This document shows, piece by piece, positions 4,673 to 48,863 of a stretch of DNA of 49,654 nt. The notes beneath the pieces are model-generated. The model was not told the origin of the DNA, did not search any database, and saw nothing but the letters and a program-made list of their open reading frames with translations. The stretch is taken from contig SVOD01000002.1 of NCBI GenBank assembly GCA_015066575.1, positions 1-49,654 of the forward strand, written 5' to 3'. Origin of the DNA: Oscillospiraceae bacterium (GTDB taxonomy: Bacteria; Bacillota; Clostridia; Oscillospirales; Acutalibacteraceae). Every line of letters starts with the position of its first letter. The first letter of the stretch is position 1. A program made the translations under genes and the position numbers.

Positions 4673-4684
4673 GGGGGTGCCGCA

Positions 4685-5939: not shown

Positions 5940-5955
5940 GAATTAACCCCTGCCT

Positions 5956-7563: not shown

Positions 7564-7575
7564 GGAGGTGAAGAA

Positions 7576-8838: not shown

Positions 8839-8851
8839 AAGGGAGAAACCT

Positions 8852-25546: not shown

Positions 25547-25557
25547 GTACAGCACAG

Positions 25558-26637
25558 ATGTTAGATAAATTAGAAGGCATTTACAGCCGCTTCCAAACCG
25601 TAACCGAGCAGCTTTGCTCTCCCGAAGTGGTTTCCGATATGGAAAAATACACTTCGCTGATGAAAGAGCAAAAGAAGCTCGAACCGATTGTTGAAAAATA
25701 CAAGGAATTAAAAACCGCCACCGCGAATGCCGCCGAAGCGGAACAGCTGCTTGAAGAAGGCGGTTCGGATAAAGAGCTCAAAGAGCTCGCCGTGGAGGAA
25801 CTCAAGCAGGCAAAGGAACAAATTGAAACCTGCACGGAGGAGTTGAAAATTCTCCTGCTCCCCCGCGACCCGAATGATGATAAAAACGTCATTGTCGAAA
25901 TCCGCGGTGGTGCCGGCGGTGAAGAAAGCGCGCTTTTTGCAGGCACGCTTTACAGAATGTATACCATGTACGCCGAGTCCAAAGGATTTAAGCACGAAGT
26001 GCTTTCGGCGCAGGAAACCGGGCTTGGCGGCTTTAAAGAAATCTCCTTTTCCATTTCGGGCGACGGCGCCTATTCCCGCTTCAAGTTTGAAAGCGGCGTA
26101 CACCGCGTACAGCGCGTGCCGGAAACCGAAAGCCAGGGGCGCATCCACACCTCGACCTCTACCGTAGCGGTTCTTCCCGAAGCGGAGGAAGTCGATATTG
26201 ATATCAACCCGACCGATTTGCAGATTGATACCTTCCGCTCCAGCGGTGCCGGCGGGCAACACATCAACAAAACCGAAAGTGCGATTCGTATCACCCACAT
26301 CCCGACCGGTACGGTCGTAGAATGTCAGGACGAACGCAGCCAACATAAAAACAAAGATAAGGCGATGAAAATTCTGCGCTCGCGCATTTTGGAAAAAGAG
26401 CGCGAAAAGCAAAACGCGGAAATCGCCGGCGACCGCAAAGCGCAGGTCGGCACCGGCAACCGCAATGAGCGTATCCGAACCTATAACTACCCGCAGGGCA
26501 GAGTCAGTGACCACCGCATCGGCTTAACGCTCTATAAATTAGAGCAGATTTTAAACGGTGATTTGGATGAACTCATTGACGCTTTGATTACCGCGGATAC
26601 CGCAGAAAAACTTCGCGCCAGCGAATCAGAAACATAA
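25558..26637 (+). CDS. prfA: Peptide chain release factor 1
   Basis: The start MLDKLEGIY... is at 25558. The supplied ORF start at 25432 overlaps DUF951 in another frame. The GGQ motif [14 protein letters not shown] and the RF1 tripeptide region [14 protein letters not shown] are present. Confidence 0.93.
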
Positions 26638-30460: not shown

Positions 30461-32302
30461 TTAATAGACAAATTCCCAGTCCCAGACTTTTCCGTTACTG
30501 TCGAAATATACCCAACCGTAGTCATAATCTCCCCACTCGTAGTACCATGTTTCACCATAAGAACTCTCGTAAATACGCGTTGGATAGCGATAGTCCGGCA
30601 CCAGCTTTACCATAGATTGTGAATATCCCACCTTAATATAGTCGGTATAGTACACAATATCGGTATACTTAATCATGCCCTGCCCAAACTCATTGGCATA
30701 TTTTAAGGTGATTTTTGTTCCGGCACTATGATAACCGACTTTCAAAGAATAGTAAAACTTCTTACTGTCTTTTGTGACTTTTGCGGTATAGGTCTTGCCG
30801 CCTATCGTCACCAGAATTTTCGTGCCTTTGAGCGCATTGGTGACATAGCCCTTTATCACATTTTGGCTTTTATAAATATAGTTATTGGATAATGTTTTAT
30901 CAACAGGAAATACGCGGTGCTTTGCCGCCCAATTACCGTAAACAACCGTACCGTCTGCCCACTGTTTATACGCTCTGACCGTAACGGTGTAAATCTTACC
31001 TTCAACTAATTTTAATGTATATTTGACATTCTTTGTTTTATAATACTTCCAGTTGCCGCCCTTTACCTGTACGGCAATCTGGTAGCCGGTGACACCGCCG
31101 CCGCATTTATTATATTGCAATGCTGCCCGGTTGAATTCCCAATCATCCTCATTAAATTTCTCAATCAATCCGGTAATTTTAGTCGTTTGCGGAATGATGT
31201 AGTAGTATTTCTTGACACTGTCCACAAAATCGCCTGTTCCGGTAATGGTGACATAGCGGTAGCCGATGTTTTTATTGTCGCTGTATTTGACTTTAACCTT
31301 GATGGCTTTGCCTTTATAGGTTACCTTGATATTGAGCGGCTGCGCCTTGCCGTTATAGATTTTGTTTTTGATGCCGCTGATTTTGCAATCTGCCAGACTT
31401 AAGCCTGCTGTGCGCGTTTGCACCTTGCTCCAGGTGCCGAATTGATAATCACCATCAATCAAGGCATAGGTGCGCACGCGAAAATCATACTTTGCTTTGT
31501 TCTTTAAGCCTGAAAAGGTCTTTGTCGTTGCACTCTTCAAGTCATAATTTTGCCAAGTGCCGCCGGATTTTCTAAACTGCAGTTGGTAATACACCTCGCC
31601 GGAAAATTGCTTAATATCCGCGCGAATAGCGGTCTTTGCCAGCTTAAAGTTAGAAAACGCTGCTTGCGGCAAGCGAATGGAAAAATACAGGCGCTTACTG
31701 CCAGTAAAATTGCCTGTACCGGTAATATCCACATATGCTTCATCCTCACATGGATTTATGTTGTTAAAGTATTCCGCGCTGAAGGTCGCCTTATGACCAT
31801 TGTAAGAGATATTCATTTTTTGCTGCACAGGTGCCCCCGTGTAAAGCAAATCCTTAAAGCCGGTGATGCTGCAGTCATTCATGTCAACCGGTAGCACATT
31901 GATTTTGATAGTGGGATCCTCTCTTTCCCAATAACCTTCTTCTTCCTCATACCAACCATAGTAATCATCCACTTTAATATAATATGTTCCGGTTTTTTGC
32001 GCAGTTAATAAATAGTAGGGCTCTTCTATTAAATCGTACTCATCATCACTAATACATTTTTCAACTAAAAAACCTTGATTTAGTCCGCTTAAATCAACAT
32101 CGCAATAATATTCATTTGTCAAATAAAACGAATCATAGACATGTATGGTGATTTCGCGCTCACAATCATACACATCATACATATCATACTCATCATCAAA
32201 CCACTCATCTTCCTCTGCCGCGGCATTGACTGCACAGGCAGAAAAAACAGCTGTCAAAAGCACCGCGAGAATCAGTGTAGCCCATAATACTCTTTTCTTC
32301 AT
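30461..32302 (-). CDS. Secreted Tyr/Lys/Trp-rich repeat protein (Ig-like + FN3-like module pairs, C-terminal cell-wall-binding-like repeat)
   Basis: The start is the ATG at 32302 (RBS AAGGAG; signal peptide MKKRVLWATLILAVLLTAVFSACAVNAAA). The supplied ORF extends to 32368. Two homologous modules end ...ITGTGNFTGSKRLYFSI and ...ITGTGDFVDSVKKYYYI, each followed by an FN3-like segment. The C-terminus GWVYFDSNGKVWDW resembles a CW_binding_1 (choline-binding-type) repeat. Confidence 0.6.
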   Translation of the reverse strand: MKKRVLWATLILAVLLTAVFSACAVNAAAEEDEWFDDEYDMYDVYDCEREITIHVYDSFYLTNEYYCDVDLSGLNQGFLVEKCISDDEYDLIEEPYYLLTAQKTGTYYIKVDDYYGWYEEEEGYWEREDPTIKINVLPVDMNDCSITGFKDLLYTGAPVQQKMNISYNGHKATFSAEYFNNINPCEDEAYVDITGTGNFTGSKRLYFSIRLPQAAFSNFKLAKTAIRADIKQFSGEVYYQLQFRKSGGTWQNYDLKSATTKTFSGLKNKAKYDFRVRTYALIDGDYQFGTWSKVQTRTAGLSLADCKISGIKNKIYNGKAQPLNIKVTYKGKAIKVKVKYSDNKNIGYRYVTITGTGDFVDSVKKYYYIIPQTTKITGLIEKFNEDDWEFNRAALQYNKCGGGVTGYQIAVQVKGGNWKYYKTKNVKYTLKLVEGKIYTVTVRAYKQWADGTVVYGNWAAKHRVFPVDKTLSNNYIYKSQNVIKGYVTNALKGTKILVTIGGKTYTAKVTKDSKKFYYSLKVGYHSAGTKITLKYANEFGQGMIKYTDIVYYTDYIKVGYSQSMVKLVPDYRYPTRIYESSYGETWYYEWGDYDYGWVYFDSNGKVWDWEFVY

Positions 32303-32384
32303 ACATTCATCTCCTTTGTGATATACTCTAACACTATCATAATACATATCTGCTTTTTGCGCAAACATTTTTTTGAGTTTATAG

Positions 32385-32446: not shown

Positions 32447-32709
32447 TCTTTTGCTTATGGGCAATGCTTTGCACAATTCAAAAGTGCACTTTTCAGCTTT
32501 CTCGTTTTCCCGGCAGGCGTCATGGTAGCTGTTTGCCTGTTGGCGGAAAACTTAAAGCACTGCCTGTATTGTTGCACCGCCGCCTGTTGCGGGCGGTGCC
32601 CCCGCAAACGAACTCTCGGTGCGGGAGCGGTCAACTCCCGCACCTATAATGGAGTTCATTTAAGGTCTGTTACCGCTTTTTAAAAACGGTAAAAGTTTTA
32701 CTTGAAGAG

Positions 32710-35700
32710 TTAGAAGTTTTCCTTTCTTCTCTTCTTGAGGGTTACAACTGCAAGACCGATGGAGGAAACAAGGATGATGGACATCACAACTAATGTCGCA
32801 TTATCGCCTGTGCGAGCAGTTCTGCTGTAGGAGCTTCTTCTGCTGCTGTCTTTCTTATCGGTATTGCCGCCTTCTTCCTTAATCTTTCTTGCATTGTCTT
32901 CGAGATACTTGAGATAAGAAGCCATTTCGTCTACTTCAGCCTGATTGGTAAACTCATTGTTGTCATACTTGTCATAAATATCATCGATGTAAGCTTTGAT
33001 TGCATCAAGATCTTCTTGGACATACTTACCGGTCTTCACCATTTGCTTATATCTCTCAACAAGCTTTTCAATGTCGGTCATATCCGGAACAAACTTGGTG
33101 TCAACCTGGTAAATTGCGGTGTAGACTGCATCGCCTGTTGCAGCAACCACTTCCTTATCCCAACCAACGAAGGTGTAGGTGGTGTTACCATCTACATAAT
33201 CATCCGGGGACGGAACGGTCGGCATAGCGCCATCTTCTACAGTCTGGAAGTGGTCAGTCAAGTGACCATCTTCTACTTCTGCTGCACTCTCGGCATATAT
33301 GAAGTTAATGGTGTAGGTAGTGGTAAGCGGGATTTCATCATACACAGCCGTGTAGGTGGTGTCGGCTTCTGCCACGCCTACTTCCTTATCCCACTGCTTG
33401 AACTTATACTGCATGGTAGCGGTAGTAAAGTCGTCCGGAGTCGGGATGCTCGGCATAGCGCCCTGTGCATACACAGCGCTGTGATCAGCATAGGAGCCGC
33501 TTTCAGCCTGGGTAGCATCGTCAGCATACTTGAAGTTGATGGTGTAGGTCGGGGTAACAACCGGAGTCTCGGTGTACTGAGCGGTGTAGGTAGCATCGCC
33601 GTCTACCGGTGCGATTGCCGGATCCCAACCGGTGAAGTCATACTGTGTACCAGCCACAACAAAGCCTGTTGCCGGGTCTGCGATAGTCGGCGTGTCACCA
33701 AAGGCAACATCCATCGTATCGGTCACGGTCGAAGCATCTGTCGGGTCTTTCGTCACAACAGTAATGGTATACATTCTCGGGCTTTCGTTGAATACAGCAG
33801 TGTATTCAGCATCACCCTGGCAAGTGGTAACCACTTCCGGAGTCCAACCTGTAAAGCTGTAAACCGTGGAAACGGAGGGAGCCTTGGTCGGATTATCCGG
33901 CAGGACAACCGTATCGCCATAGTGGAGAGTCTGAACATCGTAATCTGCACCGTCTACAGTAAACTTAACAGTGTAGTCAATGTAAGTCGGGGTGTAGGTT
34001 GCCTTGTAGGTTTCATCGCCCTGGCAAGTAGCCACTACAGCCGGATTCCATCCTGCAAAGCTGTAGGTGTAGGTTTCGTCATCCGGTCTGGTCGGATCAT
34101 CCGGAACCGTAATGGTATCGCCCCAGTGATAGGTACCACTGCTGATGGGTTCATCATTGTAATCTACGAATGCAATGTCATACTCAATGTAGGTCGGGGT
34201 GTAAGTTGCCTTGTAGGTCACATTGCCTTGGCAAGTAGCCTCAACTGCCGGATCCCAACCTGCAAAGTCGTAGTGGTAGGTTTCGTCATTCGGTCTGGTC
34301 GGATCTACCGGAACCTGAATCGTATCGCCCCAGTGATAGGTTTCACTGCTGATGGGTGTAGAGTCATAATCTACAAATGCCACCGTGTACTCTTTATAAG
34401 TCGGGGTGAAGCTGCCGTTATAGGTTGCATTGGCAGTTACCTTTTCGGAAACCTGCGGTTCCCAACCTGCAAAGGCATAGGTGTAGGTATTGTCTTCCTG
34501 CTTCACCGGGTCTACCGGAACAACGAGGTCAACATTGTAGTTGTAGGTGCCTGTTGCATATTCCTGACCGTCTACATTAAAGGTTACGGTGTAAACAATC
34601 TTCTCCAAGCCGGTGATAGCATCATTAATTGCTGCAGTTGCATCATCCACCTGTTGCTGCTGGGATTCACCCAAGCCGGGTTGTACATTATTGTCAACCG
34701 CATTCTGCAAAGCTCCAAGAGTTTCCTCTGTGTAAATCTTATCGGCATCCGGTGTGGTCAAAATGCGCTCTGCATTGCCGACGGCAGTCTCGTTTGCACT
34801 GTAGTCTGCCGGCAGGAACTGACTGCTGTAGTCAGCAACATAAGTGACATTCGCAGTAGCCGGAGCGATTTCGGCAGGCACGTTGTCAACCTTCCACTCA
34901 AGGAAGGAATACTCGTAGTCATTCTCCGTGTAGTTCGGAGTTGCCGGAGCTTGCGGAGTCTCACCGTAATCCAAGATTCTCTCGGTGGTGCCTTCGTGAG
35001 TGATAAAGGTGATGGTGAACTGGTTCGGCACTAACTCGAAGTTGTTGAGTTCGCCTGCCTTCGCGTCCACATCGCCCTGTTGGCTCTTGAGCGGTTCGCT
35101 CTGTGCAAGTGCATTTGCCTCGCTGACTAAGCGGTTAAAGTCTTCTGCATTTGCATACTTCTCATCGAAGTTTGCTTCTTGCTGCTTCTGCTCTGCTGCA
35201 GAAATAGCATCATTGAGAGTAGTAAGGTCAGCATAGTTCGTGGTTTCGCTATACTGAGCGGTATAGGTAGCATCCTGGGTCGGGGTGGTTTCAACCTCTG
35301 CGCCCCAACCGGTAAAGGTGTAGGAAGTATTACCGTCTTGAGAATCCGGTCTGGTCGGATCCTGAGGAACAGTGATGGAGTTGCCGGCGTTCACGGTCTG
35401 CGTGGAAATCTCGCTACCATCCCAATCCTGGAATACGATAGTATAAGTGGTCACAGGTTGACCCTTCGGCACCAAAGTGCTGTTTTTGATTGCGTTGGTC
35501 AACGCATCAATAGCGCCCTGTTGGCTCTGACCAATCTGTGCGGGAGGATTCAGATATTGCTCTGCTTCGCCCAGCTTCTGATTAAGAGCTGCAACAGATT
35601 CATCTGTCCATTCGGTACCGCTGTCTCTCTCGGCAATCTTATTGTTGACTGCAGTCTGGAGCGCAGTAGTATCTGCCGGTACAAAACTACCCTCGTACTG

Positions 35701-37800
35701 AGCATCGTAAGTAGCATTGCCATCTACCGCTGCAAAGTCGGGTGACCAACCGGTAAGGGTGTAGTGATAATCGCCATCATCATAGCTTTCGGGAACTACG
35801 GGTGCCTTTGCGGCAACAGCCTGCGCGGTAGCACCGTATTGGAAGGTTTCCGTAGTCGGGTCACTGTTGGGAACCACATAGGTGATGGTGTAATCCTGCA
35901 AAGTCAAAGCAGTGATGGCATCTGTGATAGCCGTTGCCATTGCGTCTACATCGCCTTGCCGGCTGACAGGCAGGTCGCGCACAACGCGATTAATGGCATC
36001 TGTCAAAACTTGCCTTGAATCCCCTGTGTACTTCTTCGCATAATCGGTTTGACCGGTCATTTCATTAGCTGCTGAAATAGCATTGTCAACAGCGGTGTAA
36101 TCTGCCTTGTTGGCAACCTCGTTGTACTGAGCGGTGTATTCGGTAACACCTGCCGAAACCGTACCGAGAGCGGGATCCCAACCGGTAAACTCATAAGTGG
36201 TGTTGCCATCTGCAGTGGTAACGGTCTGTGCATTCGGTGCATAGTTCGCTACACTGGTGCCCAGTTCCGCTGCCGGAACATCGAGCGTTGTTAACTCTGC
36301 ATTAGCATCTCTGTAATTGAAAGAAATAGCAATGGTCTTAGCAACCGGATCAGCATATTTTGCAGTGAAGGTGGCTTCGCCGGAGCAAGTGGGAAGATCT
36401 ACTACTTCGCCGGTGCTGTCCTTCCAACCCTGGAATGCCTGGGTATAGGTGTCAGCATCAATATCTGCTTGGGAACCTTCGGGAGCAACGATTTGCGCAC
36501 CTTCGGTGAACGGAACTGTGGTGCTCTGTTCGCCTTCAGCGGTCTGCCATACAAAGGTGATATTATAGGTCGCTGCAACCGGTACTAAGGCTCTTCTGGC
36601 ATCTACCAAATCATTCAAAGCGGTTTCAATCTCGCCAGCGGTCGGCCAATCTGCGGGATTCTCGCTTGCGTTGTTAGTCAAAACAGTTTGTGCTGCCGCT
36701 AACTTTTGAGCAAAGGTATCCCAACCGGACTGATAATCTTCTTCCTTAAGAGCTTCGTCGCTTGTCACTTCGGTTTGAAGTGAAGAAGCGTCGTTCTTCG
36801 TCTTTGTGTACTGTGCAGTGTAGGTAGCATCTGCAGTAGCAGGATTGACAACTTCTTTATCCCAACCGTTTGCGGTATAAGTAAAGTTGCCATCGGTATA
36901 ATTGACTAATGTGGGAACTTCAAATTCATCCACACCATCATTGGTGATTTCGACATCGTCTGCCGCGGTACCGTCTGCCTTCTTAATGCCGGTGAATGTA
37001 ACGGTATAAGAAGAAACCGGATCAAAATCGGAAGAGAAGCCGATATCCACGCTGTTCGGGTAACCTGCAGCCTCTTTTGCGCTGGATACATAGGAAAGTG
37101 CATCGACAACGCTGGGGGTGCCGGAACCGGGGCCGATATCGGAATCGGTGCCCAAATTGATTGCTGCTTTACAATCGGCAAGAGTTTTGCCTTCCTGCGG
37201 TTTCAGGTAAAGGTGAGAGAGCGTAACGGTAACCGGGCCGGTTGCGGGTGCTTCCTGTTCCCAGTACTCATAACCATCTTCACTGTTACCTGCCATCTGG
37301 ATAATCACTTTACCCGCCGTGTTCTTAGAAAGCGTAGACATGCTGTTCATAGCAAATGTCGCGGTTTCTTCTCCGGTGTCATCCAGCGGAATTTCAGCGG
37401 GGATTAAAGCCCAATCCTTAGACGCGTTAATGAACTTGAGGCTTGCTTCATCCACTAAGGCAAGCATTGCAGCCATATTCGGATTGCCTCTGGTGCGGCT
37501 CGCTTTACTGACTGTGCTCACAACGTCAGGGTCGATTGTGATAACCTGATTAAAGGTTTTTAAGACTCTTTCATCGCCTTCTTCAAGCTTAGAATAGTCG
37601 ATAGTGGCTTGTAAAGCAACATCGATTAAGCCTGCATACTTACCGGTCGATTCATCGGCGATAGAAACGTCTACATACAAGTCAGTAGCGTCACCAATCT
37701 TGTTTTTTTCGACCCCTGCACTCGTAATCAGTTGGATCGGAATCATGGAAAAGACCATGACCAATGCAAGTGCAAGGCTCAAAACTTTTTTGACCTTCAT
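32710..37800 (-). CDS. Giant cell-wall-anchored surface protein with 13 Listeria-Bacteroides (Flg_new-type) repeats and FIVAR-like helical modules
   Basis: The product is 1696 aa, with RBS GGAGG 7 nt upstream and signal peptide MKVKKVLSLALALVMVFSMIP. I counted 13 repeats by eye with the signature Y.(V/I).F....G......Y..G.....P..P.....Y.F.GW(D/N/T)P......D.TY.A.Y. The C-terminus has TARTGD, a hydrophobic helix and KKRRKENF. Confidence 0.8.
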   Translation of the reverse strand: MKVKKVLSLALALVMVFSMIPIQLITSAGVEKNKIGDATDLYVDVSIADESTGKYAGLIDVALQATIDYSKLEEGDERVLKTFNQVITIDPDVVSTVSKASRTRGNPNMAAMLALVDEASLKFINASKDWALIPAEIPLDDTGEETATFAMNSMSTLSKNTAGKVIIQMAGNSEDGYEYWEQEAPATGPVTVTLSHLYLKPQEGKTLADCKAAINLGTDSDIGPGSGTPSVVDALSYVSSAKEAAGYPNSVDIGFSSDFDPVSSYTVTFTGIKKADGTAADDVEITNDGVDEFEVPTLVNYTDGNFTYTANGWDKEVVNPATADATYTAQYTKTKNDASSLQTEVTSDEALKEEDYQSGWDTFAQKLAAAQTVLTNNASENPADWPTAGEIETALNDLVDARRALVPVAATYNITFVWQTAEGEQSTTVPFTEGAQIVAPEGSQADIDADTYTQAFQGWKDSTGEVVDLPTCSGEATFTAKYADPVAKTIAISFNYRDANAELTTLDVPAAELGTSVANYAPNAQTVTTADGNTTYEFTGWDPALGTVSAGVTEYTAQYNEVANKADYTAVDNAISAANEMTGQTDYAKKYTGDSRQVLTDAINRVVRDLPVSRQGDVDAMATAITDAITALTLQDYTITYVVPNSDPTTETFQYGATAQAVAAKAPVVPESYDDGDYHYTLTGWSPDFAAVDGNATYDAQYEGSFVPADTTALQTAVNNKIAERDSGTEWTDESVAALNQKLGEAEQYLNPPAQIGQSQQGAIDALTNAIKNSTLVPKGQPVTTYTIVFQDWDGSEISTQTVNAGNSITVPQDPTRPDSQDGNTSYTFTGWGAEVETTPTQDATYTAQYSETTNYADLTTLNDAISAAEQKQQEANFDEKYANAEDFNRLVSEANALAQSEPLKSQQGDVDAKAGELNNFELVPNQFTITFITHEGTTERILDYGETPQAPATPNYTENDYEYSFLEWKVDNVPAEIAPATANVTYVADYSSQFLPADYSANETAVGNAERILTTPDADKIYTEETLGALQNAVDNNVQPGLGESQQQQVDDATAAINDAITGLEKIVYTVTFNVDGQEYATGTYNYNVDLVVPVDPVKQEDNTYTYAFAGWEPQVSEKVTANATYNGSFTPTYKEYTVAFVDYDSTPISSETYHWGDTIQVPVDPTRPNDETYHYDFAGWDPAVEATCQGNVTYKATYTPTYIEYDIAFVDYNDEPISSGTYHWGDTITVPDDPTRPDDETYTYSFAGWNPAVVATCQGDETYKATYTPTYIDYTVKFTVDGADYDVQTLHYGDTVVLPDNPTKAPSVSTVYSFTGWTPEVVTTCQGDAEYTAVFNESPRMYTITVVTKDPTDASTVTDTMDVAFGDTPTIADPATGFVVAGTQYDFTGWDPAIAPVDGDATYTAQYTETPVVTPTYTINFKYADDATQAESGSYADHSAVYAQGAMPSIPTPDDFTTATMQYKFKQWDKEVGVAEADTTYTAVYDEIPLTTTYTINFIYAESAAEVEDGHLTDHFQTVEDGAMPTVPSPDDYVDGNTTYTFVGWDKEVVAATGDAVYTAIYQVDTKFVPDMTDIEKLVERYKQMVKTGKYVQEDLDAIKAYIDDIYDKYDNNEFTNQAEVDEMASYLKYLEDNARKIKEEGGNTDKKDSSRRSSYSRTARTGDNATLVVMSIILVSSIGLAVVTLKKRRKENF

Positions 37801-37904
37801 AAATTTACCTCCATGAAATATTTTATATACATAATCTTCAAGATTTGCATTTTTTGATCATCTGCTACCAATATTGACTCAAAAAGTGCATGCTTTCGGA
37901 TTAG

Positions 37905-39050
37905 TTATAACGATTTTTTCTTTTTATTTTTAAGTAAGATAACAACAATGACTGCTGCCAGAGCCGCAACGGCTGCACAGATACCGATAATCAGCCACTT
38001 GGATTCGCCGGTCTTTGCCGGTGCCTCCAACTTTTCGGCAACTTCGGGGAACTCTTTTTCGAGTGCCTCCTGTGCCTTGCGCAGATTCTCGAGCGCCTGT
38101 TGCTTTTGCTCAGGTGTGGCATTTTTATCTGCCAACACCGCTTCTGCTTCCTCTACCGCCTTTTCATAGGCTTTGTAGGATGCACTTTGCTTTTGCTCGG
38201 GTGTAAAATCAACTGCTTTTGCCGCAGCCACGCGCTGTTGTAACTCACTTTCCACTTGAGCTTCGCTCATCTCGCTGACCGGTTTGGTCGCCGGCGCCGC
38301 GGTAGTGGTTTTTGTTTCTTTCGTAGTTTTCTCGGTTTCCTTCTGCTTGGTAGCAGGCTCGGTTTCGGTAGGCACCTCGCCGCCATCCATCAGCGCTTCA
38401 TCCACTGAAAGCTGAATGGGACTGACCCCTTTACCGATTTCGGTTTTGGAACTGATTTCGGTCACAAAGACAGCTTTTGCGGGGCAATCTTTACCGATTT
38501 CCGCCTGCTTGCAAAGCCTGATAGCGCCTGCCGGCAGTTTGCCTTCGGCTTTGGTTTTGAGGTAGAGGGTTGCCACTTTGGTTTTTTGCGCCAAATTGAC
38601 ACCGTTGTTGGCATCGTTTGCCATACCGCACAAGAAGATGTACATCTGCTTGCTGCTTTCGTTGTAGGAAGCGATGCTCAACCCTCGAAAGCCCGAAAAC
38701 TCCGGGTCTTCGCTGCCGGAGGAAGCCGCCGCCACGGTGGAGGACTTCCCGAGAGTACTCATATCTTTTTTGTAAGTATCGGTGGTAGCGTCACCCTTTT
38801 TGTTGACAATATCGATGTAATCGGTATTGAAAACAATCGTCGCGCCGAGTGTCGTAATCGCGGCATTCGGGTCGGATTTGCAGTACATTTCCACAAGCAT
38901 ATTGCCGGGAGCGGAAGTATCTTCCACTTTTTTGACTGCAAACTCAAAGGATGAGGCTTCGGAGAGGGTGGCTGCAACTGCGTGAAATCCCGCGCACTGC
39001 AGCACCATCACCAAGAGCAGTGCAATACTGCACCATTTAATCTTTTTCAA
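37905..39050 (-). CDS. Sortase-anchored protein carrying a cohesin-like module (candidate anchoring scaffoldin)
   Basis: The likely start is the TTG at 39050, with AGGTGA 7 nt upstream, giving signal peptide (M)KKIKWCSIALLLVMVLQCAGFHAVAA. The supplied ATG at 39107 lies inside the upstream gene and has no RBS. The N-terminal ~190-aa beta-rich module is homologous to the N-terminal module of 39070-40215. A T/E/K linker and a helical region follow, then the C-terminal PAKTGE + hydrophobic helix + KNKKKKSL. Confidence 0.65.
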   Translation of the reverse strand: MKKIKWCSIALLLVMVLQCAGFHAVAATLSEASSFEFAVKKVEDTSAPGNMLVEMYCKSDPNAAITTLGATIVFNTDYIDIVNKKGDATTDTYKKDMSTLGKSSTVAAASSGSEDPEFSGFRGLSIASYNESSKQMYIFLCGMANDANNGVNLAQKTKVATLYLKTKAEGKLPAGAIRLCKQAEIGKDCPAKAVFVTEISSKTEIGKGVSPIQLSVDEALMDGGEVPTETEPATKQKETEKTTKETKTTTAAPATKPVSEMSEAQVESELQQRVAAAKAVDFTPEQKQSASYKAYEKAVEEAEAVLADKNATPEQKQQALENLRKAQEALEKEFPEVAEKLEAPAKTGESKWLIIGICAAVAALAAVIVVILLKNKKKKSL

Positions 39051-39069
39051 ACTGTATTCACCTGAAAAA

Positions 39070-40215
39070 TTATAAGTTAATGACTTGATGCTCTGCATCC
39101 ATACCATAGTGGCTGGCGAGCAGGATAATACCGAGGTCCTGACCGGTTACGGTACCGCTACCATCGACATCACAAGCATCGTCCGGACCAACTTCCTGAC
39201 CGTATTCGGTAAAGAGTTGGGCAATATCCTGACCGGCAATCGCACCGTTTTGGTCACAATCACCGAAGAGCAGGTAGATGCTTGGCGGCACAGCGGTTTC
39301 GCCTGCCTCAACGACCAAGTTATTGATGGTGAAGCCTACGGAACCCGGTGCGGAAATCTGAATGCTGTAAATGCCTTCTTCCACATCGTCAAAGCTGTAA
39401 CCTGCGGTACCTTGGGTAGTAGTGGTGTACTCGTTGTCGTCATTATACAGTCTGACCGTAATGGTCGCAACGGCATTGTCGACCTGGCTGATGCCCGCGG
39501 AACCGTCCACAGCGCCATTAAGGGTGGGAAGGGTAACGGTGATATCGGTTACAAAGTTTTCCGGAACCGGCTCAAAAATGACATCTTTGGAAGACACCGC
39601 ACCCGGATAAATCGCGGGAGACGGGCAACCGCCGGTTTCTCTCCACTCGCTAACCTCCATCTTTCTGATGTTGGTTTCACTGAACTTCTGACCCTCTTTA
39701 AGCTGCAGGTAGAAATCTGCAATTTGGCACTTACCGTCTACTGTCAAGCCGTCGTAAGAACAGCCGCTGACAAAGAGGTAGAAGGTGTCGGTATCGCTGT
39801 TGTAGGAAATCATGCTGAATTCACCCAAACGAATGAATTTTTCGCCTTCATCCACAGCAGTGGCTTCGAGTGCAAAGTCGCTGCCGACCTGCTTGCTGTT
39901 GGTTTTGTAATCATCGGTAATAATCTCGCCGGTCTTGCTGACAAAATCATACACACTGCCATCGAGCGCCAAAGCAGCGCCGAAGCCGTCGATTAACTCG
40001 GTATTGTCTGTAGTGAGGTATAAACCTACCTCAAGGTTTCCTGCGGAACCCGCAGCCGCTTTGCTGACAACAAAGTCATAAGCGGATGATTCCGATAAAG
40101 CACTTGCACTTGCACTAAAAGCAAACGGAACCTGTAACAACATAGCAAGCACTAAAACGGGCACTAAAACTTTCAAAATTTTTCTTTTCATAGCTCTTCT
40201 CGATTCTTCATTCAT
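39070..40215 (-). CDS. Secreted protein: cohesin-like module + prealbumin/Cna-B-like domain + dockerin (candidate adaptor)
   Basis: The product is 381 aa, or 373 aa from the ATG at 40191. The signal peptide is ...KRKILKVLVPVLVLAMLLQVPFAFSASA. The C-terminal 69 aa carry two EF-hand-like dockerin loops, GDCDQNGAIAGQD and CDVDGSGTVTGQD. Confidence 0.7.
   Translation of the reverse strand: MNEESRRAMKRKILKVLVPVLVLAMLLQVPFAFSASASALSESSAYDFVVSKAAAGSAGNLEVGLYLTTDNTELIDGFGAALALDGSVYDFVSKTGEIITDDYKTNSKQVGSDFALEATAVDEGEKFIRLGEFSMISYNSDTDTFYLFVSGCSYDGLTVDGKCQIADFYLQLKEGQKFSETNIRKMEVSEWRETGGCPSPAIYPGAVSSKDVIFEPVPENFVTDITVTLPTLNGAVDGSAGISQVDNAVATITVRLYNDDNEYTTTTQGTAGYSFDDVEEGIYSIQISAPGSVGFTINNLVVEAGETAVPPSIYLLFGDCDQNGAIAGQDIAQLFTEYGQEVGPDDACDVDGSGTVTGQDLGIILLASHYGMDAEHQVINL
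39073..39279 (-). other. Dockerin module of the 381-aa protein
   Basis: The sequence is IYLLFGDCDQNGAIAGQDIAQLFTEYGQEVGPDDACDVDGSGTVTGQDLGIILLASHYG. It has two D-x-D-x-(N/S)-G-x-(I/V)-x-x-x-D calcium-binding loops, each followed by a helix. Confidence 0.75.
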
Positions 40216-40272
40216 TAATATTTGTTTCTTATTAATTACTGACCTTATTAATATTTAATAACATTAATAACC

Positions 40273-43200
40273 TTAATCAAGTGTCATGACCTGTGTGCTG
40301 CTATCCATACCGTAGTGGCTGGAAAGTAAGATAATACCGAGGTCCTGACCGGTTACGGTGCCGTTACCGTCTACATCACAGTAGTTATTCGGTGCAACTT
40401 CCTGACCGTATTCAGTGAAGAGAGCGGCAATGTCCTGACCGGAAATAACGCCGTTGTTATCGCAATCACCATAAAGCAGGTTGATGCTCGGGATTTCTTT
40501 GACTGCGCCTGCTTCAACCACCACATTGTAAACGGTGTAGCCGAGGGAACCGGCGGAAGCAATGGTCATGGTGTAAGTGCCCGGAAGCACATTTTCAAAG
40601 CTATAATCGCAAGCCTTGCCTTTTGCGGAAGCGGTGTATTCGTTCGTGCCGTCGGAAAGGGTGAGCAGAATATCCGCGCTCATATTGTCGCCGGTCAAAG
40701 CGCCGGTGACAGTACCGGTTTGAACTTCTGCAAGAAGCAAATCTGCCGGATCGCTATGCATAAAGGCTTCGGTAGTATCGTTAATAATTGCCGAGTAAAC
40801 GGAGTGCCCTGCTTCGGTGTTGGCGGCAAGCGGTGCATTCTTGATGTAAGAAGTGCTTGCTGCGCCGGTCGCCGTAAAGGTAAGGGTGGCAACCAAATCT
40901 CTGGAAGCTTCGGTCGGTGCAAGGGCTGCATCGAAGTCCGCTGCAATTTTCAGAATGCCGGCTTTACCCATCGCATCCAAACCGTAGTCGGCAGGATTGA
41001 AGGCAGCATCCATCGTTTCGGTGTAAATGGCTGTGCCGTTATTGATCTCGGCGGACTTAAAGGTCATTGCCTGAGCATCATACAGGGTAGCGAGCATGAT
41101 ACCGTCTACCGTATCGACCGGGTGGTTGAGATAAACCTTGACAACGATGTTGGTCGGGTCTTGTTCATCTACCTCTTGCACATACTCAAGGTTGGAGTAG
41201 AAGTATTCGTGGTCCACACCTTCCCAATCGGTTTCGCCTGCCCAGCTGGTGGTTAATTCAAGCGCATTTATCGCTGCTTGAAGGTCAGAGGTCAAGGCGT
41301 CGAGAGTGGGTTGATAGTCAATATCCTGCCCTCTTTGTACCATGTCGAGCACTGCCTGTACGGCTGCCACGGAATCGGAGGTGTAATACTGCTTGGGCAG
41401 GTTGTTGAACTGTGCTTCAAGAGCATCCCAAGCGGTGTAGTCCGCATCCTTCTTAACAAGTGCATTGAGTGCGCTTCTTAAGGTGGTGATGGCGGAAGCA
41501 ACTTCTTCATTGGTTGCGTTGTCATCATTATACACGGTGTTGGCTGTTGCCAATGCCGCTGTGACATCACTGAAGTCGGTGTACTTGTCGGGATCTAAAG
41601 CCTGAGCTTCATCGATAAGCTGTTTCAATGTGGTCTTATCTGCTTTGACAACAAGGTGATCCCACAGACCCTCTACGGCTGTTTTTGCATTATCAACCGT
41701 TGCCTGGTCAATAATCTTAAGCTCTTTGTCCAACGCATTGTCGATATCTGCAAGTTCCTGGGTAACCAAAGCGATGGAGTCGGGAGTGTAATCATCTTTT
41801 TGCAACTCTGCCTGTAAGGCTTCCACAGCTGCATTGTATGCCGAATAGTCGGCGGGCTTGTATTCGAGAGCGGAAATCGCTGCTTCAATGTCGGCAGCCA
41901 TGGTATCCACTTCGACCTGATGGGTTCTGCCTAAGCCTTCGACAACTGCATTGAGCGCTCCATCGAGCACTGCCAGGGAAGCATCGGTATAGAGATCCCT
42001 GTTAATTTCAGCCGCAGCAGCCTGTGCGATTGTCACTGCGCTGTAATCGGCTGCTACAAAGTCTCTGGTGTAGAGAGCGGTGTAGGTGGTGCTTTCCGTT
42101 GCGACAGCCGGTGCCTTATCCCAACCGGTGAAGGTGATTTGGTAGTCACCGTCTGTCGGGTCGGCGTGGTCTACAAGTTCCGGAACATCAGGCATGGTGT
42201 TTGCCTTCACGCTCTGCGTTTGGCTGACGCCTTCAATAATAAAGGTAATATCATAATAGATATCCTCGGAGGAATACTGCGCTGTGTAGGTGGTGTTGCC
42301 CGCGCAAGGTACCACAGCGGGATTCCAACCGATGAAGGAGTAGGTCTTGCCGCCTTCTTCATAACTCGGAACGGTGATGGAAGAGGTGTCCGGCATATCG
42401 CCCCAGTGTGTGGAAACATCCTGAGAGCCGCCTACCCATTCAAATGTAATGGTATAGTTTTTATATTCATTAGAATATTGTGCTGTATATGTTGTATCGC
42501 CCTGTACTGTTGTAACTTCCTTATCCCAATTCGAGAAGGTGTAGGTATAGGTATCATCTTCATAACCGGGAACGGTAGGAACGCTTACATTGTCACCATA
42601 ATGATAGGTGTCGGTAGAAATGACGCCGTCGTGACCGACAAAGGTAATGGTGTAGTTAATGTAATCCTGTCTGTATTGTGCCGTGTAGGTCGCACTTGCG
42701 GTGACCGTTGCGGGAACAGAAGGAGTCCAACCGGTAAAGGTATAGGTGTAAGTGTTGTCTGCCGGTTTGGTGGGATTGTCGGGTTGAATAAGAGTGTCAC
42801 CGTAGTGGTAGTCTCTGGTGTCGTAGACTTGGTTTTCATTGATAAAGGTAACGGTGTAAGTCTTAAACTCTTGACTATAAACCGCATCGTAGGTCGCATT
42901 GCCTGCGCAAGGCGCTAACGCGGGATTCCAACCGGTGAAGGTATAGGTATAAATATCATCCTCATAATCGGATACGGTCGGTGCCTGCGGTGTATCGCCC
43001 CAGTGCGCGTGAACCACTTCACTGCCGCCTGCCCAATTAAAGGTGATGTCGTAATTCTTCCAAGTTTCATCAAACTTCGCGGTATAGGTGGTATCGCCCG
43101 CAGCCGGACCAACTGCCGGGCTCCAACCGGAGAAGGTGTAAATCTTCGCATCATCTTCATAACCGCTCACAGTAGGAATGGCGGGCATCTCACCGGCAGT

Positions 43201-44370
43201 TACGGTTTGGGTGGAGATGGTTTCGCCTCTGGAAACAAAAGTGATGGTATATTCGGCTGCCTGCACTTGCAGTGCCTCTGCTGCCGCGATGATAGCATCT
43301 TTCTGAGCATCTACAACTGCCTGTTCGGTTCTGCCCTTACCCTGCACATCTTTATTGAGCTCGGTATTCAGAGCAGCCACGGAATCCGCTGTCCAATTTG
43401 TGCCGTTGTCTCTCTTGTTGATTGCCGCTGTTCTGGCAGCATCATACGCTGTATAGTCGGCAGAAACAAAGGTTTCGGTGAACTGGGCAATATAGGTAGT
43501 TGCCGCATAGACCGGACCAAGCGCGGGAGACCATGTGCCGGAGAAGTCGTAATCATAGTTACCGTCTTCATAATGGGACGGGATGGTCGGCGCAGTCGGT
43601 GTGCTGCCTTCGTCAACTTCGATGGTGGTGCTGTCGGTCGTGGTGGGGCTTGTGTTCCAAATAAAGGTCACCTGATGCTTCACAACGGGACCGGGACCGC
43701 CGGTAATTTTAAAGGAAGAGGACGGAGCCGTCGCGGAAAATGCAGTTTCATAGACACCTTCGGTAGAAGCGGAAGCCGTGCAGTTCAAATAACCCAATGC
43801 CGGGCTGAACACGATAGAGGGAACCAGAGAAATCTTACTGGACTCTACCGAAGCTTTTGCTTCAAAACTAACGGTTGCCACCGCTTCGGAGCCTGCCTCT
43901 AAACCATTGAGGTTGAGCACTGCCAAGTTAATGACTGCCGGAGTGGTGAGGTTGCAATAGCCGATGATGTCATCAAATGAACTGGCTGTGAAAGGATCGC
44001 CGCCAATGCCCATGGTTAAGGTGGTGGGGTCAATCTGTGTTGCGGAAGTCGGCTCTAACTGTGAGCTGTAATACTCGTAGCCGTTTTGCAATGTTACGGA
44101 TTTAAAATCAAGAACACTGCTGTCAAACACAATAAAGCCCTGATAACCGATAACGGAATCATTGGGGTGATTGAGATTGATTGTTGCTGTCACGGTGTCG
44201 CCAACAGCAAAGGTGTTGCCGCTCACGCTGACAGTGGACTGGACTCTCAGTGCATTGTTGGGACCGTTGCGGTCGTAGCCGGTGTAAGCAAAAGCGCTTA
44301 CAGCAAAACAGCTCAACGCCAACAGGACGCTCAACAAAATGCAAAGAGCTTTCTTCATTTGTTTCGCCAT
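40273..44370 (-). CDS. Large secreted modular protein: 2 cohesin-like modules, 7 Flg_new-type repeats, ~5 FIVAR-like helical modules, Cna-B-like domain, C-terminal dockerin
   Basis: The product is 1365 aa, with RBS AAGGAGAG and signal peptide MAKQMKKALCILLSVLLALSCFAVSAFA. Two homologous beta-rich modules share the signatures INLNHPNDSVIGYQGFIVFDSSVLDFKSV and VYLNHPVDTVDGIMLATLYDAQAMTFKSA. There are seven Y.(I/V)TF...GW.P...TY.A.Y repeats. Helical modules include ADKTTLKQLIDEAQALDPDKYTDFSDVTAALATANTVYNDDNATNEEVASAITTLRSALNAL. The C-terminus is a dockerin. Confidence 0.8.
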   Translation of the reverse strand: MAKQMKKALCILLSVLLALSCFAVSAFAYTGYDRNGPNNALRVQSTVSVSGNTFAVGDTVTATINLNHPNDSVIGYQGFIVFDSSVLDFKSVTLQNGYEYYSSQLEPTSATQIDPTTLTMGIGGDPFTASSFDDIIGYCNLTTPAVINLAVLNLNGLEAGSEAVATVSFEAKASVESSKISLVPSIVFSPALGYLNCTASASTEGVYETAFSATAPSSSFKITGGPGPVVKHQVTFIWNTSPTTTDSTTIEVDEGSTPTAPTIPSHYEDGNYDYDFSGTWSPALGPVYAATTYIAQFTETFVSADYTAYDAARTAAINKRDNGTNWTADSVAALNTELNKDVQGKGRTEQAVVDAQKDAIIAAAEALQVQAAEYTITFVSRGETISTQTVTAGEMPAIPTVSGYEDDAKIYTFSGWSPAVGPAAGDTTYTAKFDETWKNYDITFNWAGGSEVVHAHWGDTPQAPTVSDYEDDIYTYTFTGWNPALAPCAGNATYDAVYSQEFKTYTVTFINENQVYDTRDYHYGDTLIQPDNPTKPADNTYTYTFTGWTPSVPATVTASATYTAQYRQDYINYTITFVGHDGVISTDTYHYGDNVSVPTVPGYEDDTYTYTFSNWDKEVTTVQGDTTYTAQYSNEYKNYTITFEWVGGSQDVSTHWGDMPDTSSITVPSYEEGGKTYSFIGWNPAVVPCAGNTTYTAQYSSEDIYYDITFIIEGVSQTQSVKANTMPDVPELVDHADPTDGDYQITFTGWDKAPAVATESTTYTALYTRDFVAADYSAVTIAQAAAAEINRDLYTDASLAVLDGALNAVVEGLGRTHQVEVDTMAADIEAAISALEYKPADYSAYNAAVEALQAELQKDDYTPDSIALVTQELADIDNALDKELKIIDQATVDNAKTAVEGLWDHLVVKADKTTLKQLIDEAQALDPDKYTDFSDVTAALATANTVYNDDNATNEEVASAITTLRSALNALVKKDADYTAWDALEAQFNNLPKQYYTSDSVAAVQAVLDMVQRGQDIDYQPTLDALTSDLQAAINALELTTSWAGETDWEGVDHEYFYSNLEYVQEVDEQDPTNIVVKVYLNHPVDTVDGIMLATLYDAQAMTFKSAEINNGTAIYTETMDAAFNPADYGLDAMGKAGILKIAADFDAALAPTEASRDLVATLTFTATGAASTSYIKNAPLAANTEAGHSVYSAIINDTTEAFMHSDPADLLLAEVQTGTVTGALTGDNMSADILLTLSDGTNEYTASAKGKACDYSFENVLPGTYTMTIASAGSLGYTVYNVVVEAGAVKEIPSINLLYGDCDNNGVISGQDIAALFTEYGQEVAPNNYCDVDGNGTVTGQDLGIILLSSHYGMDSSTQVMTLD
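40276..40485 (-). other. Dockerin module of the 1365-aa protein
   Basis: The sequence is INLLYGDCDNNGVISGQDIAALFTEYGQEVAPNNYCDVDGNGTVTGQDLGIILLSSHYG. It is about three-quarters identical by eye to the dockerin at 39073-39279. Confidence 0.75.
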
Positions 44371-44488
44371 AAAAATCTCTCCTTTTCAACAATATGGGCG
44401 CATATAATTTCGGTCTTTTGAGTATTTGCGCGCAATATATAATACAAAAGAGCGCAAAATGCCCATAGACTACCTGTTATACAAAAAT

Positions 44489-44517
44489 ATTTTAGCAGAC
44501 CGACCGCCCAAAGTCAA
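44489..44517 (-). promoter_or_regulatory. Candidate promoter of the surface-protein locus
   Basis: On the minus strand, TTGACT (44517-44512), 17 nt, TAAAAT (44494-44489). This gives a ~110-nt leader before the ATG at 44370. Confidence 0.5.
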
Positions 44518-44699
44518 TTACTTTATATAAAAAGAACCCGTAAAATTTCACGAATTTTACACACAAATTTAGACAATGTGTACAAGCGCCTTTTTTTGGC
44601 ATTTTTTTCTTGTGCAAAAGGTAGAATTTTTTACAACTTTTATGTGCTGGTTGCACAAATAATTAATTAACTTTTTTAAGTTTTTCCGCGCTTTGAAAG

Positions 44700-44945
44700 C
44701 CTGTTTTTTGCATGATTTGAGCCCGCCTGCGTTAAGGGTTCTCACCGTGGCAAATGCTGCGGATACCTCGAAACCGATGCGTAAATGCCGCCGTTTTTCG
44801 TTTGCGTTGGCAAACAGCGCAGCGAAGCTGTCTCGCGGCAAAACCATATCGCATTTGCTTTTGCAAATATACCGCGCAGTGCGCAGCACTGCCTTCTCAT
44901 CGGGTGCGGTGTTCCCGCCCTATCATTGCCTTGCCAAACTGCGCG
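44700..44945. repeat. GC-rich hairpin cluster related to the intergenic element family (copy I, no tandem-repeat arms)
   Basis: It contains atcgggtgcggtgttcccgccct (44899-44921), the reverse complement of the gggcggga-cacc-gcacccgat core seen at 17433 and 47527. It also has several 5-7 bp GC hairpins with 3-4 nt loops (tgcgc-aac-gcgca, gcagtgc-tgc-gcactgc, tttgc-aaaa-gcaaa). The overlapping ORFs on both strands are non-coding in appearance. Confidence 0.5.
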
Positions 44946-44951
44946 TTGCGC

Positions 44952-44985
44952 AAAAAAAAATCCGCCGAGGCTTTGCTCGGCGGAG
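44952..44985 (-). terminator. Rho-independent terminator of the rpsF-ssb-rpsR operon
   Basis: The minus-strand RNA is UCCGCCGAG-CAAAGC-CUCGGCGGA followed by U9, 9 nt after the rpsR stop. Confidence 0.85.
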
Positions 44986-47717: not shown

Positions 47718-47747
47718 CTCATTCGAAATATATTCCGAGGTATGGTT

Positions 47748-48863
47748 ATGTTACAATATGAAGAATTAAAATTTGAGCTCAAGCAGCAGCTGCCGGCTTT
47801 GGAAGAGTTGGCGGATGCTTTAAATCTCGACGGCTTGCGGCAAGAGGAAAACACATTGCAGGCGCAGTCTGCCGAACCCGGGTTTTGGGATGATATCGAA
47901 AACAGCCAAAAGGTGCAAAAGCGCCTGAGCGAAATTCAATCCAAACTCAAAAAATACGCGGCATTGCAGGCAAAATATGACGATGCGATGGCAATGATTG
48001 AGTTGGCGGATGAAGCAGAGGATTTAAGCTTTGAGGAAGAATGTAAAGAGAGCATAGAAGACTTTAAAACCGCTCTGGAGGACATGACCCTGCTGACTCT
48101 TTTGACCGGCGAATATGACTCCAAAAACGCCATTATCAAATTTTCTCCCGGTTCGGGCGGCACCGAGGCGCAGGATTGGGCGCAAATGCTCTTAAGGCTT
48201 TACACACGCTGGGGCGAACGCCACGGCTACAAGGTCACCACACTCGATTACCTCGACGGGGATGAGGCTGGCATCAAAAGCGCCACCATTCTTATTGAGG
48301 GCGAAAATGCCTACGGCTACCTCAAAGGTGAACACGGTGTTCACCGCTTGGTCAGAGTTTCTCCCTTTGACGCGGCGGGCAGGCGCCACACCTCTTTTGC
48401 GGCGCTGGAAGTGATGCCGGAAATTGACGATTCGGTCGAAATCGACATCAGCCCCGACGATATCAAACTCGATTACTACCGCGCTTCGGGCGCGGGCGGA
48501 CAGAAGGTCAACAAGACTTCTTCCGCCGTACGCATGACGCATATCCCCACCGGCATTGTGGTTTCCTGCCAGGTCGAGCGCAGCCAGCACCAAAACCGCG
48601 AGGTGTGCATGAAAATGCTCAAGGCGGAACTGGTGCGGCTCAAGGAAGAGCAACAGGCGGAAAAGATTAGCGACATCAAGGGCGACCAGCGCGAAATCAC
48701 GTGGGGAAGCCAAATTCGCTCCTATGTTTTTATGCCCTACACCCTCGCAAAAGACCACCGCACGGGCTATGAATACGGCAATATTAACGCGGTGATGGAT
48801 GGGGATATTGACGGCTTTATTAACGCCTATCTCAAGCAAAATTCGCAAAAAGAAAACGCATGA
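47748..48863 (+). CDS. prfB: Peptide chain release factor 2 (single in-frame ORF, no programmed frameshift)
   Basis: The ATG at 47748 has GAGG 7 nt upstream. The supplied start is 47742. The SPF motif (RVSPFDAAGRRHTSFA) and the GGQ motif (SGAGGQKVNKTSSA) are present. The region where many bacteria have CUU UGA C reads AAT CTC GAC GGC in frame. Confidence 0.93.
   Translation: MLQYEELKFELKQQLPALEELADALNLDGLRQEENTLQAQSAEPGFWDDIENSQKVQKRLSEIQSKLKKYAALQAKYDDAMAMIELADEAEDLSFEEECKESIEDFKTALEDMTLLTLLTGEYDSKNAIIKFSPGSGGTEAQDWAQMLLRLYTRWGERHGYKVTTLDYLDGDEAGIKSATILIEGENAYGYLKGEHGVHRLVRVSPFDAAGRRHTSFAALEVMPEIDDSVEIDISPDDIKLDYYRASGAGGQKVNKTSSAVRMTHIPTGIVVSCQVERSQHQNREVCMKMLKAELVRLKEEQQAEKISDIKGDQREITWGSQIRSYVFMPYTLAKDHRTGYEYGNINAVMDGDIDGFINAYLKQNSQKENA

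Follow-up and report, generated by a model that had tools for sequence, protein, structure and literature searches.

A conserved four-gene operon of a gut Oscillospiraceae bacterium that probably builds a cell-surface assembly held by cohesin-dockerin contacts

The stretch of DNA analysed here (the window) comprises 49,654 nucleotides of the Oscillospiraceae bacterium contig SVOD01000002.1 (assembly GCA_015066575.1). It carries four consecutive minus-strand open reading frames (ORFs) of 1365, 381, 400 and 1696 amino acids, referred to below as (i), (ii), (iii) and (iv), at the positions given for them in an initial annotation made from the sequence: 40273-44370, 39070-40215, 37905-39107 and 32710-37800, respectively. 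Cohesin-dockerin assembly is best known as a means of displaying enzymes on plant fibre. All four proteins encoded here are secreted, and each starts with a cohesin or a module of cohesin fold. With a probability of roughly 70%, we read the locus as a conserved operon whose four products form an assembly on the cell surface, joined by contacts between cohesins and dockerins.

Gene (i) (40273..44370, minus strand, as for all features of the operon) encodes a 1365-aa protein composed of a signal peptide, a cohesin, seven Flg_new repeats with five FIVAR-like modules, a second cohesin, an X module and a dockerin. The N-terminal cohesin (iN; aa 30-225, 43696..44283) scores 33.9 bits against the Pfam cohesin family PF00963, whose gathering threshold (GA) of 24.1 is passed by this module only, and it has weak PDB sequence matches to the type II cohesins 4u3s and 5g5d. 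The second (iC; aa 1040-1215, 40726..41253) has no Pfam match when scanned alone; hhalign relates it to iN with 95.5% probability and the two have the signature LNHP.D.V.G...FKS in common, in agreement with the homology of these beta modules that had been noted by eye. Between them lie seven Flg_new (Listeria-Bacteroides repeat, PF09479) units at aa 233-771 (42058..43674), of which repeats 2-6 reach 45.5 bits in a segment scan (GA 27). A custom hidden Markov model (HMM) built from the clearest units returned exactly 7 domains in (i) and 13 in (iv), the counts already proposed. Five FIVAR-like three-helix modules can be read, at about aa 303, 773, 838, 907 and 975, one of them after the first Flg_new repeat and the other four, marked by periodic ADY..A module starts, at aa 773-1040 (41251..42054). 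The number of modules thus stood; their family assignment is borderline, with a best Pfam FIVAR (PF07554) score of 28.7 bits against a GA of 29.2 and scores of 23-24 bits for the others. The helical modules also match the helical C-domain of the GH20 protein StrH in the PDB (E 7e-4).

The C-terminus of (i) consists of an X module (iX; aa 1216-1296, 40483..40725), a prealbumin/CarboxypepD_reg-like beta sandwich with a CarboxypepD_reg score of 25.4 bits (below GA), and a dockerin (aa 1297-1365, 40276..40482) that scores above threshold with Dockerin_1 (26.2 bits, GA 22.9) and contains two 12-residue Ca loops, DCDNNGVISGQD and DVDGNGTVTGQD.

Protein (ii) (39070..40215) is a small adaptor of 381 aa made up of a signal peptide, a cohesin-like module, an X module and a dockerin. 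Its start is probably Met9, as in its orthologues, giving 373 aa. The cohesin-fold module (iiN; aa 38-225, 39541..40104) is related to that of (iii) by hhalign at 99.9%. It is followed by the X module at aa 232-312 (iiX) and the dockerin at aa 313-381 (together 39073..39522). Protein (ii) shares 57% identity with (i) over the 152 aa of the X-dockerin segment, and the dockerins, estimated by eye at about 75% identity, measured 75-76%. The Cna-B/prealbumin-like domain said to be common to both proteins corresponds to this X module, with weak CarboxypepD_reg and SdrD_B matches. Dockerin_1 scores 14.9 bits on (ii), below GA, and precomputed annotation records PF00404 for three homologues of (ii). 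The Ca loops are canonical in both proteins in 10 of 10 genomes, with D or N at positions 1, 3, 5 and 12 and an occasional S or G at position 5. From these profile matches and the models described below, both proteins are predicted to end in an X-dockerin dyad, in line with the dockerins proposed in the initial annotation.

For gene (iii) the most likely start is the TTG at 39050, which lies behind an AGGTGA ribosome-binding site and agrees with the starts of orthologues. The gene therefore spans 37905..39050 and encodes 381 aa, and its overlap with (ii) disappears. The protein runs from a signal peptide through a cohesin-fold module (iiiN; aa 46-240 in the 400-aa numbering, 38388..38972), a Thr/Glu/Lys linker and a FIVAR-like module to a membrane helix with a KNKKKK tail (37908..38003), which follows a PAKTGE motif. 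This motif had been taken as a wall-sorting signal. It is present but restricted to the nearest relatives, its place being taken in other orthologues by SAKGSS, SSSKKV, NKAGGG or EKSPVC. Across orthologues the membrane helix and poly-Lys tail persist and a sortase motif does not, so the C-terminus would serve as a membrane anchor rather than in wall sorting. Judged by these sequence features, (iii) is better read as a membrane-tethered single cohesin of the kind recently described in Ruminococcus.

Protein (iv) (32710..37800) has 1696 aa. The initial annotation recognised its repeats and a wall-sorting signal and missed a cohesin-like module at the N-terminus (ivN; aa 28-265, 37006..37719), behind the signal peptide. 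Only two homologues of ivN were found, too few to build a model on, and it was compared profile-to-profile instead: hhalign aligns it to the family formed by the (ii) and (iii) modules over 181 columns with 94.5% probability (E 8e-8). The rest of the protein is a stalk of 13 Flg_new repeats with interleaved helical, FIVAR-like modules, identified with the custom HMM (aa 265-1568, 33097..37008); repeats 7-10 score 52.5 bits in the segment scan. It ends in TARTGDNATL, a hydrophobic helix and KKRRK (32713..32820). The pattern [ST][APV]xTGDNA[ST]L with the helix and K/R tail is conserved in 10 of the 10 genomes with a C-terminus of (iv), and has the three-part shape expected of a sortase signal, apparently close to SPxTG-type motifs. 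The proposed wall-sorting signal is thus retained as a conserved TGDNA-type signal, though not as one that any LPXTG profile matches.

Whether the modules of (ii), (iii) and (iv) are cohesins was examined mainly by fold. iiN and iiiN are homologous (BLASTP 32% identity, E 3e-22), as had been suggested from their alignment by eye. The family that they define is very narrow, with 16 proteins of 270-790 aa, most of about 370 aa, among 1.84 billion representatives. The AlphaFold model of iiiN, made from a 22-sequence alignment, has a mean predicted local distance difference test (pLDDT) score of 92.8 and a predicted template-modelling score (pTM) of 0.90. When it was searched against the PDB with Foldseek, the top 34 matches were all cohesins, mostly of type II (probability 0.80-1.00, E 4e-5 to 1e-2, identity 7-15%). 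They included Clostridium thermocellum SdbA and other anchoring cohesins, Acetivibrio cellulolyticus ScaA/ScaB, Bacteroides cellulosolvens cohesins and Ruminococcus flavefaciens ScaC. In the AlphaFold model of full-length (ii) the cohesin-like and X modules have pLDDT above 90. Its best Foldseek matches are the Coh9-X-DocII (ninth cohesin, X module, type II dockerin) chains of CipA, 4fl4_L and 3kcp_A (E 3e-9, 356-371 columns), so that iiN has both cohesin fold matches and an alignment within a known cohesin-X-dockerin protein. The hhalign comparisons given above, to the (ii)/(iii) family and to iN, are the evidence for a cohesin fold in ivN and iC. The initial view of the beta modules as cohesins thus agrees with Pfam for (i) and with AlphaFold and Foldseek for (iii) and (ii). 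With iN, iC, iiN, iiiN and ivN, the operon therefore has five cohesin-type modules of two divergent kinds together with its two X-dockerins.

The initial annotation had reported no enzymatic domain, and Pfam scans of all four proteins likewise gave no glycoside hydrolase, carbohydrate-binding module (CBM) or protease family at E<=1. Neither the operon nor the window encodes a dockerin-bearing catalytic subunit or a substrate-binding module of the kind that would mark a cellulosome or amylosome.

All four genes recur, with order and sizes unchanged, in 11 genomes from ruminant (goat and sheep included) and human gut metagenomes; in the nine genomes besides the present one in which (i) is complete, its length is 1360-1371 aa. 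Where the flanks could be read, they are rpsF-ssb-rpsR on one side and M18 peptidase-sua5/coaE-prfA on the other. A metagenome scan, which detects this dockerin type only, gave one further orthologue of the operon (L004) and otherwise unrelated loci, and is therefore silent on enzyme cargo.

Comparison of these operons showed an unusual pattern of divergence. The two dockerins of any one genome share 69-93% identity, whereas orthologous dockerins of different genomes have a median identity of 45-50% (range 30-100%, seven-genome set) and a mean distance of 0.53 (nine genomes). The X modules and the remaining modules, unlike the dockerins, cluster by orthology. Positions 10-11 of the Ca loops, the classical recognition positions of dockerins, agree across both loops and both proteins of a genome and differ between genomes: GQ in the window, L001 and L009, GL/AL in L002, PK/PT in L003, AQ in L011 and L017, PK in L013, PK/PQ in L014 and AL in L015. 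Where the two dockerins of a genome have the same residue, only 51-82% of the codons are identical; in L002 the dockerins are 90% identical, yet 19 of 60 identical residues use different codons (68% of codons the same). The resemblance is thus unlikely to result from recent gene conversion alone.

To ask which modules follow the dockerins, the distance matrix of each module was compared with that of the dockerins by partial Mantel tests across nine complete operons, with background divergence controlled. The strongest co-variation was that of ivN (partial r 0.89, p 2e-4), followed by iX (0.77, p 2e-4), iiiN (0.70, p 4e-4) and the rest of (iii) (0.63, p 0.0036). Values for iiX (0.25, p 0.11), iiN (0.05, p 0.41), iC (0.02, p 0.46), iN (-0.06, p 0.63) and the rest of (iv) (-0.25, p 0.94) were low or negative. 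A sliding scan with a 60-aa window placed the edges of co-variation sharply at module boundaries. In (i) it is at most 0.4 through aa 1200 and then 0.78-0.93, in (ii) it rises from aa 281 only, and in (iii) it is 0.53-0.83 along the whole length. In (iv) it is 0.74-0.91 over aa 1-260, drops sharply after aa 265-280 and is zero or below from aa 281. The co-varying set therefore consists of the X-dockerin of (i), the dockerin of (ii), gene (iii) and the cohesin-like tip of (iv). Dockerin divergence is tracked by this set only, and (i) and (ii) therefore probably dock on (iv) and/or (iii).

On this co-variation, ivN and iiiN are predicted to be the probable dockerin receptors. The initial annotation had (iii) anchor (i) and/or (ii) to the wall. 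As a receptor (iii) is plausible, given its partial r of 0.70, but it would be tethered to the membrane and not the wall, and it has a rival in (iv). Since ivN tracks the dockerins best and (iv) has a conserved sorting signal, (iv) is at least as good an anchor candidate; that it is the main receptor we consider an even bet. The chains or branches once envisaged, through binding of the operon's dockerins to the cohesins of (i) and (ii), find no counterpart in co-variation (partial r -0.06 to 0.05), and iN, iC and iiN probably serve dockerins other than the operon's own.

The assembly can be pictured as follows. After export, the X-dockerins of (i), the long protein, and (ii), the short adaptor, would compete for the same receptor cohesins, namely ivN at the distal tip of the (iv) stalk and/or the module of the membrane protein (iii). 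Protein (iv), with its 13 repeats, would probably be sortase-anchored to the wall; with (i) docked on it, Flg_new and three-helix modules would add up to a fibril some 3000 residues long. Displayed on this fibril would be three more cohesins, a pair on (i) and a single one on (ii), probably for other dockerins. Because the receptor modules change along with the dockerin recognition residues from one species to the next, each species would have a private pairing. The initial annotation took the cargo to be adhesins rather than enzymes, but the three additional cohesins could recruit dockerin-bearing enzymes encoded elsewhere in the genome, by analogy with the sca cluster of R. flavefaciens. We consider it unlikely that the product is a self-contained, enzyme-free adhesive fibril whose cohesin-dockerin lock is under diversifying co-evolution, such that subunits dock only on the anchors of their own species.

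Several observations weigh against a surface assembly of this kind. The dockerin of (ii) is modelled as two helices with a pLDDT of only 40-55. The template-modelling scores of iiiN to known cohesins are moderate (0.43-0.60 by target length among matches with E<=0.001, at 9-15% identity), and iiN, iiiN and ivN have no match to the Pfam cohesin profile. Pfam likewise gave no cohesin match on any of the 15 homologues of (iii), and phmmer and hmmsearch found no PDB sequence match for iiN or iiiN. The sorting signal of (iv) has no LPXTG-anchor match in Pfam or NCBIfam, and the window contains no sortase gene. That the operon is expressed and its proteins are exposed at the surface we infer only. 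The pairwise distances behind the Mantel tests come from 9-11 related genomes and are non-independent. The dockerin of (ii), gene (iii) and ivN are also contiguous on the DNA, so that part of the co-variation could stem from the exchange of a single recombination cassette and need no binding.

Taken to its limit, this last point becomes an alternative in its own right, in which the cassette was swapped as a unit, the dockerin of (i) was homogenised by gene conversion, and the signal says nothing about binding partners. The adjacency of the three segments, the sharp, breakpoint-like boundaries and the co-variation of the whole of (iii), non-cohesin C-terminal part included, are what it would predict. 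The X-dockerin of (i), however, lies about 1 kb off, across the non-co-varying iiN and iiX, and still matches, as selection for compatibility would produce, and the codon differences in L002 favour selection over recent conversion. Linked interacting partners would, moreover, be expected to travel in just such a cassette of dockerin and cohesin-like modules. We hold an origin by recombination to be improbable. Lower still, we place a scheme in which the dockerins bind only the cohesins of (i), which would polymerise head to tail with (ii) as a cap, while the modules of (ii), (iii) and (iv) bind, say, a glycan or host ligand. It would fit the cohesin sequence profile, matched only within (i), the tiny and divergent (ii)/(iii)/(iv) family, and the existence of cohesin-like folds in other contexts (Clostridium perfringens 2jh2 and 2w1n are among the fold matches). 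It is hard to reconcile with partial r values of -0.06 and 0.02 for iN and iC against 0.89 and 0.70 for ivN and iiiN, or with the best fold matches of iiiN, which are type II cohesins, the type that binds X-dockerins; a polymer of (i) would also have no anchor.

The most serious alternative, which we rate at a little under even odds, concerns the cargo. The operon may be the core scaffoldin cluster of a cellulosome- or amylosome-like system, in which dockerin-bearing enzymes from elsewhere in the genome sit on iN, iC and iiN and the Flg_new and FIVAR modules are spacers and not adhesins. These three cohesins do not co-vary with the operon's dockerins and may therefore pair with dockerins of a different type. 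In layout the operon resembles the R. flavefaciens sca cluster, which is itself enzyme-free (PMC5301203), and many scaffoldins hidden from profile searches, some with a Flg domain and some membrane-anchored, are reported from dockerin-enzyme-rich ruminococcal genomes (bioRxiv 10.64898/2026.02.05.704116). Against it, the operon has no CBM or catalytic module, the window holds no further cohesin or dockerin gene, and the metagenome scan, for this dockerin type only, gave only operon orthologues and unrelated loci.

The known system closest in organisation, as the initial annotation aptly pointed out with ScaE and ScaC, is that of R. flavefaciens. Its sca cluster encodes ScaC, ScaA, ScaB, CttA and ScaE, all of them structural proteins. 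ScaB and CttA, the latter an adhesion protein without catalytic function, both attach through their X-dockerins to the one cohesin of ScaE, which is itself anchored by sortase; recognition residues in these anchoring-type dockerins are symmetrical (PMC5301203). As here, the cluster is structural only and has two X-dockerin proteins, symmetrical recognition residues and an anchored single-cohesin protein, and the small cohesin-dockerin adaptor ScaC resembles (ii). Kinship is not seen at sequence level: searches of PDB sequences gave no significant match to any cohesin, from R. flavefaciens or elsewhere, and a ScaC cohesin (5lxv) was matched by fold only. The operon also lacks CBM-type cellulose-binding modules. 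Its long proteins carry Flg_new and FIVAR-like modules in place of cohesin arrays, and its X module is prealbumin-like; the dockerin insertions typical of ScaB and CttA were not seen. It has two candidate anchors, one with a membrane helix and one of sortase type, the latter a stalk of 1696 aa.

In C. thermocellum, the Coh9-X-DocII segment of CipA (3kcp, 4fl4, 2b59) has the three-module layout of (ii), and the type II cohesins of SdbA, OlpB and Orf2p bind the CipA X-DocII by the same X-dockerin-to-anchor logic. The CipA system differs in its surface layer homology (SLH) anchoring, its nine enzyme-binding cohesins and its CBM3, and identity to the operon is only 10-15%. Cohesins seen only by AlphaFold have been described in Ruminococcus, with single cohesins on a C-terminal membrane helix, a Flg domain drawn for R. 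bromii and R. sp. HUN007, and scaffoldins of R. difficilis with Ig-like, leucine-rich repeat and mucin-binding domains (bioRxiv 10.64898/2026.02.05.704116). Like those of the operon they are invisible to profiles and clear by fold, and the single-cohesin membrane tether is as in (iii). The genomes with these divergent scaffoldins, however, have dozens of dockerin enzymes. The module family of the operon has only 16 representatives among 1.84 billion proteins. A non-cellulosomal use of cohesins and dockerins together with FIVAR domains is known from the FIVAR-dockerin and cohesin (X82) toxin/glycosidase complexes of C. perfringens. The partners there are secreted glycoside hydrolases, in contrast to the operon, in which no catalytic domain was recognised.

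What appears to be new in the locus is its lineage, the narrow cohesin-fold family predicted from models, the long Flg_new/FIVAR-like proteins without recognisable CBM or enzyme, the pairing of two putative anchor kinds in one operon and the apparent species-by-species co-diversification of dockerins and receptor modules. It would represent a compact, strictly conserved version of cohesin-dockerin assembly from uncultured small-intestinal and rumen Clostridia, made of cohesins, X-dockerins and stalk/adhesin repeats only. With at least seven natural dockerin variants and matching receptor modules, it would offer a testable map of cohesin-dockerin specificity and switching, useful for the design of orthogonal protein connectors. 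Should the complex prove adhesive, gut Firmicutes would have in it a new means of assembling long fibres on their surface out of parts that are secreted separately. If the fibril with private pairing is real, it would keep secreted parts for their own species or allow self-recognition within a dense gut community, and would be a natural library of mutually orthogonal cohesin-dockerin pairs differing mainly at loop positions 10-11.

Upstream, the operon borders rpsF-ssb-rpsR, with an intergenic region of about 590 nucleotides (nt) after the strong rpsR terminator (44984-44961). The good promoter claimed ahead of the genes was recovered as the top-scoring promoter-like site of the region, a sigma-70-type TTGACT-17-TAAAAT with an upstream TG (44489..44517, 10/12 matches). 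Taken together, promoter-like sites occur here no more often than in shuffled sequence. A ribosome-binding site, AAAGGAGAG, precedes the ATG of gene (i) at 44370. The roughly 440 nt between the rpsR terminator and the promoter (44518-44960) are non-coding and contain short spurious ORFs only. A regulatory RNA at the operon was considered and rejected, as an Rfam scan in and around it, this stretch included, gave no family match. A codon bias like that of ribosomal-protein genes had also been claimed; measured against the housekeeping genes of the window, GCT and GGT are enriched, AAG is so in (i) and (iv) only, and the depleted codons are GCG and ACG.

At the other end, about 70 nt past the stop of (iv), lies a GC-rich 9-bp hairpin, GTGCGGGAG...CTCCCGCAC (32619-32643, minus strand), with no clear T tract and with a second GC-rich palindromic stretch beyond it. 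This hairpin may be the operon terminator, though the terminator scan made no call there. Directly downstream, a 635-aa secreted protein with fn3 and Ig-like repeats is encoded at 30461-32368 (minus strand). It was rejected as a fifth member of the operon, being absent or replaced in the orthologous loci checked. What occupies this slot differs between genomes: a Y1 (IS200/IS605-type) transposase together with an AAA_14/DUF4143 gene in L009 and L010, and nothing ahead of the M18 peptidase gene in L011.

The leader of (ii), LKVLVPVLVLAMLLQVPFAxSASAS (40104-40191), is near-invariant among homologues whose mature parts are just 45-50% identical, and the leaders of (iv) (37720-37800) and (i) (44287-44370) are also unusually conserved. 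Such conservation could reflect a dedicated export or processing step.

One of the unrelated loci found in the metagenome scan (L005, 3319-6249; L007, from a human gut metagenome, 6264-9818) encodes an adjacent cohesin-dockerin pair. A 976-aa protein with four Big_3 domains, a GLUG motif and a strong dockerin (50 bits) is followed directly downstream by an 1184-aa protein with a near-threshold cohesin and Big_2. No catalytic domain was recognised in the pair, and a phage-type integrase gene lies nearby.

Elsewhere in the window, a plus-strand cluster at 305-8544 consists of an AMP-binding enzyme and a pyridoxal phosphate-dependent decarboxylase-like gene followed by two tandem MBOAT pairs, each MBOAT acyltransferase being paired with an unannotated protein of 322-325 aa. 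This arrangement suggests Dlt- or alginate-acetylation-like modification of a cell-envelope polymer. The window also contains two PCRF/RF-1 release-factor genes, presumably prfA and prfB, at 25432-26637 and 47742-48863 (both plus strand).

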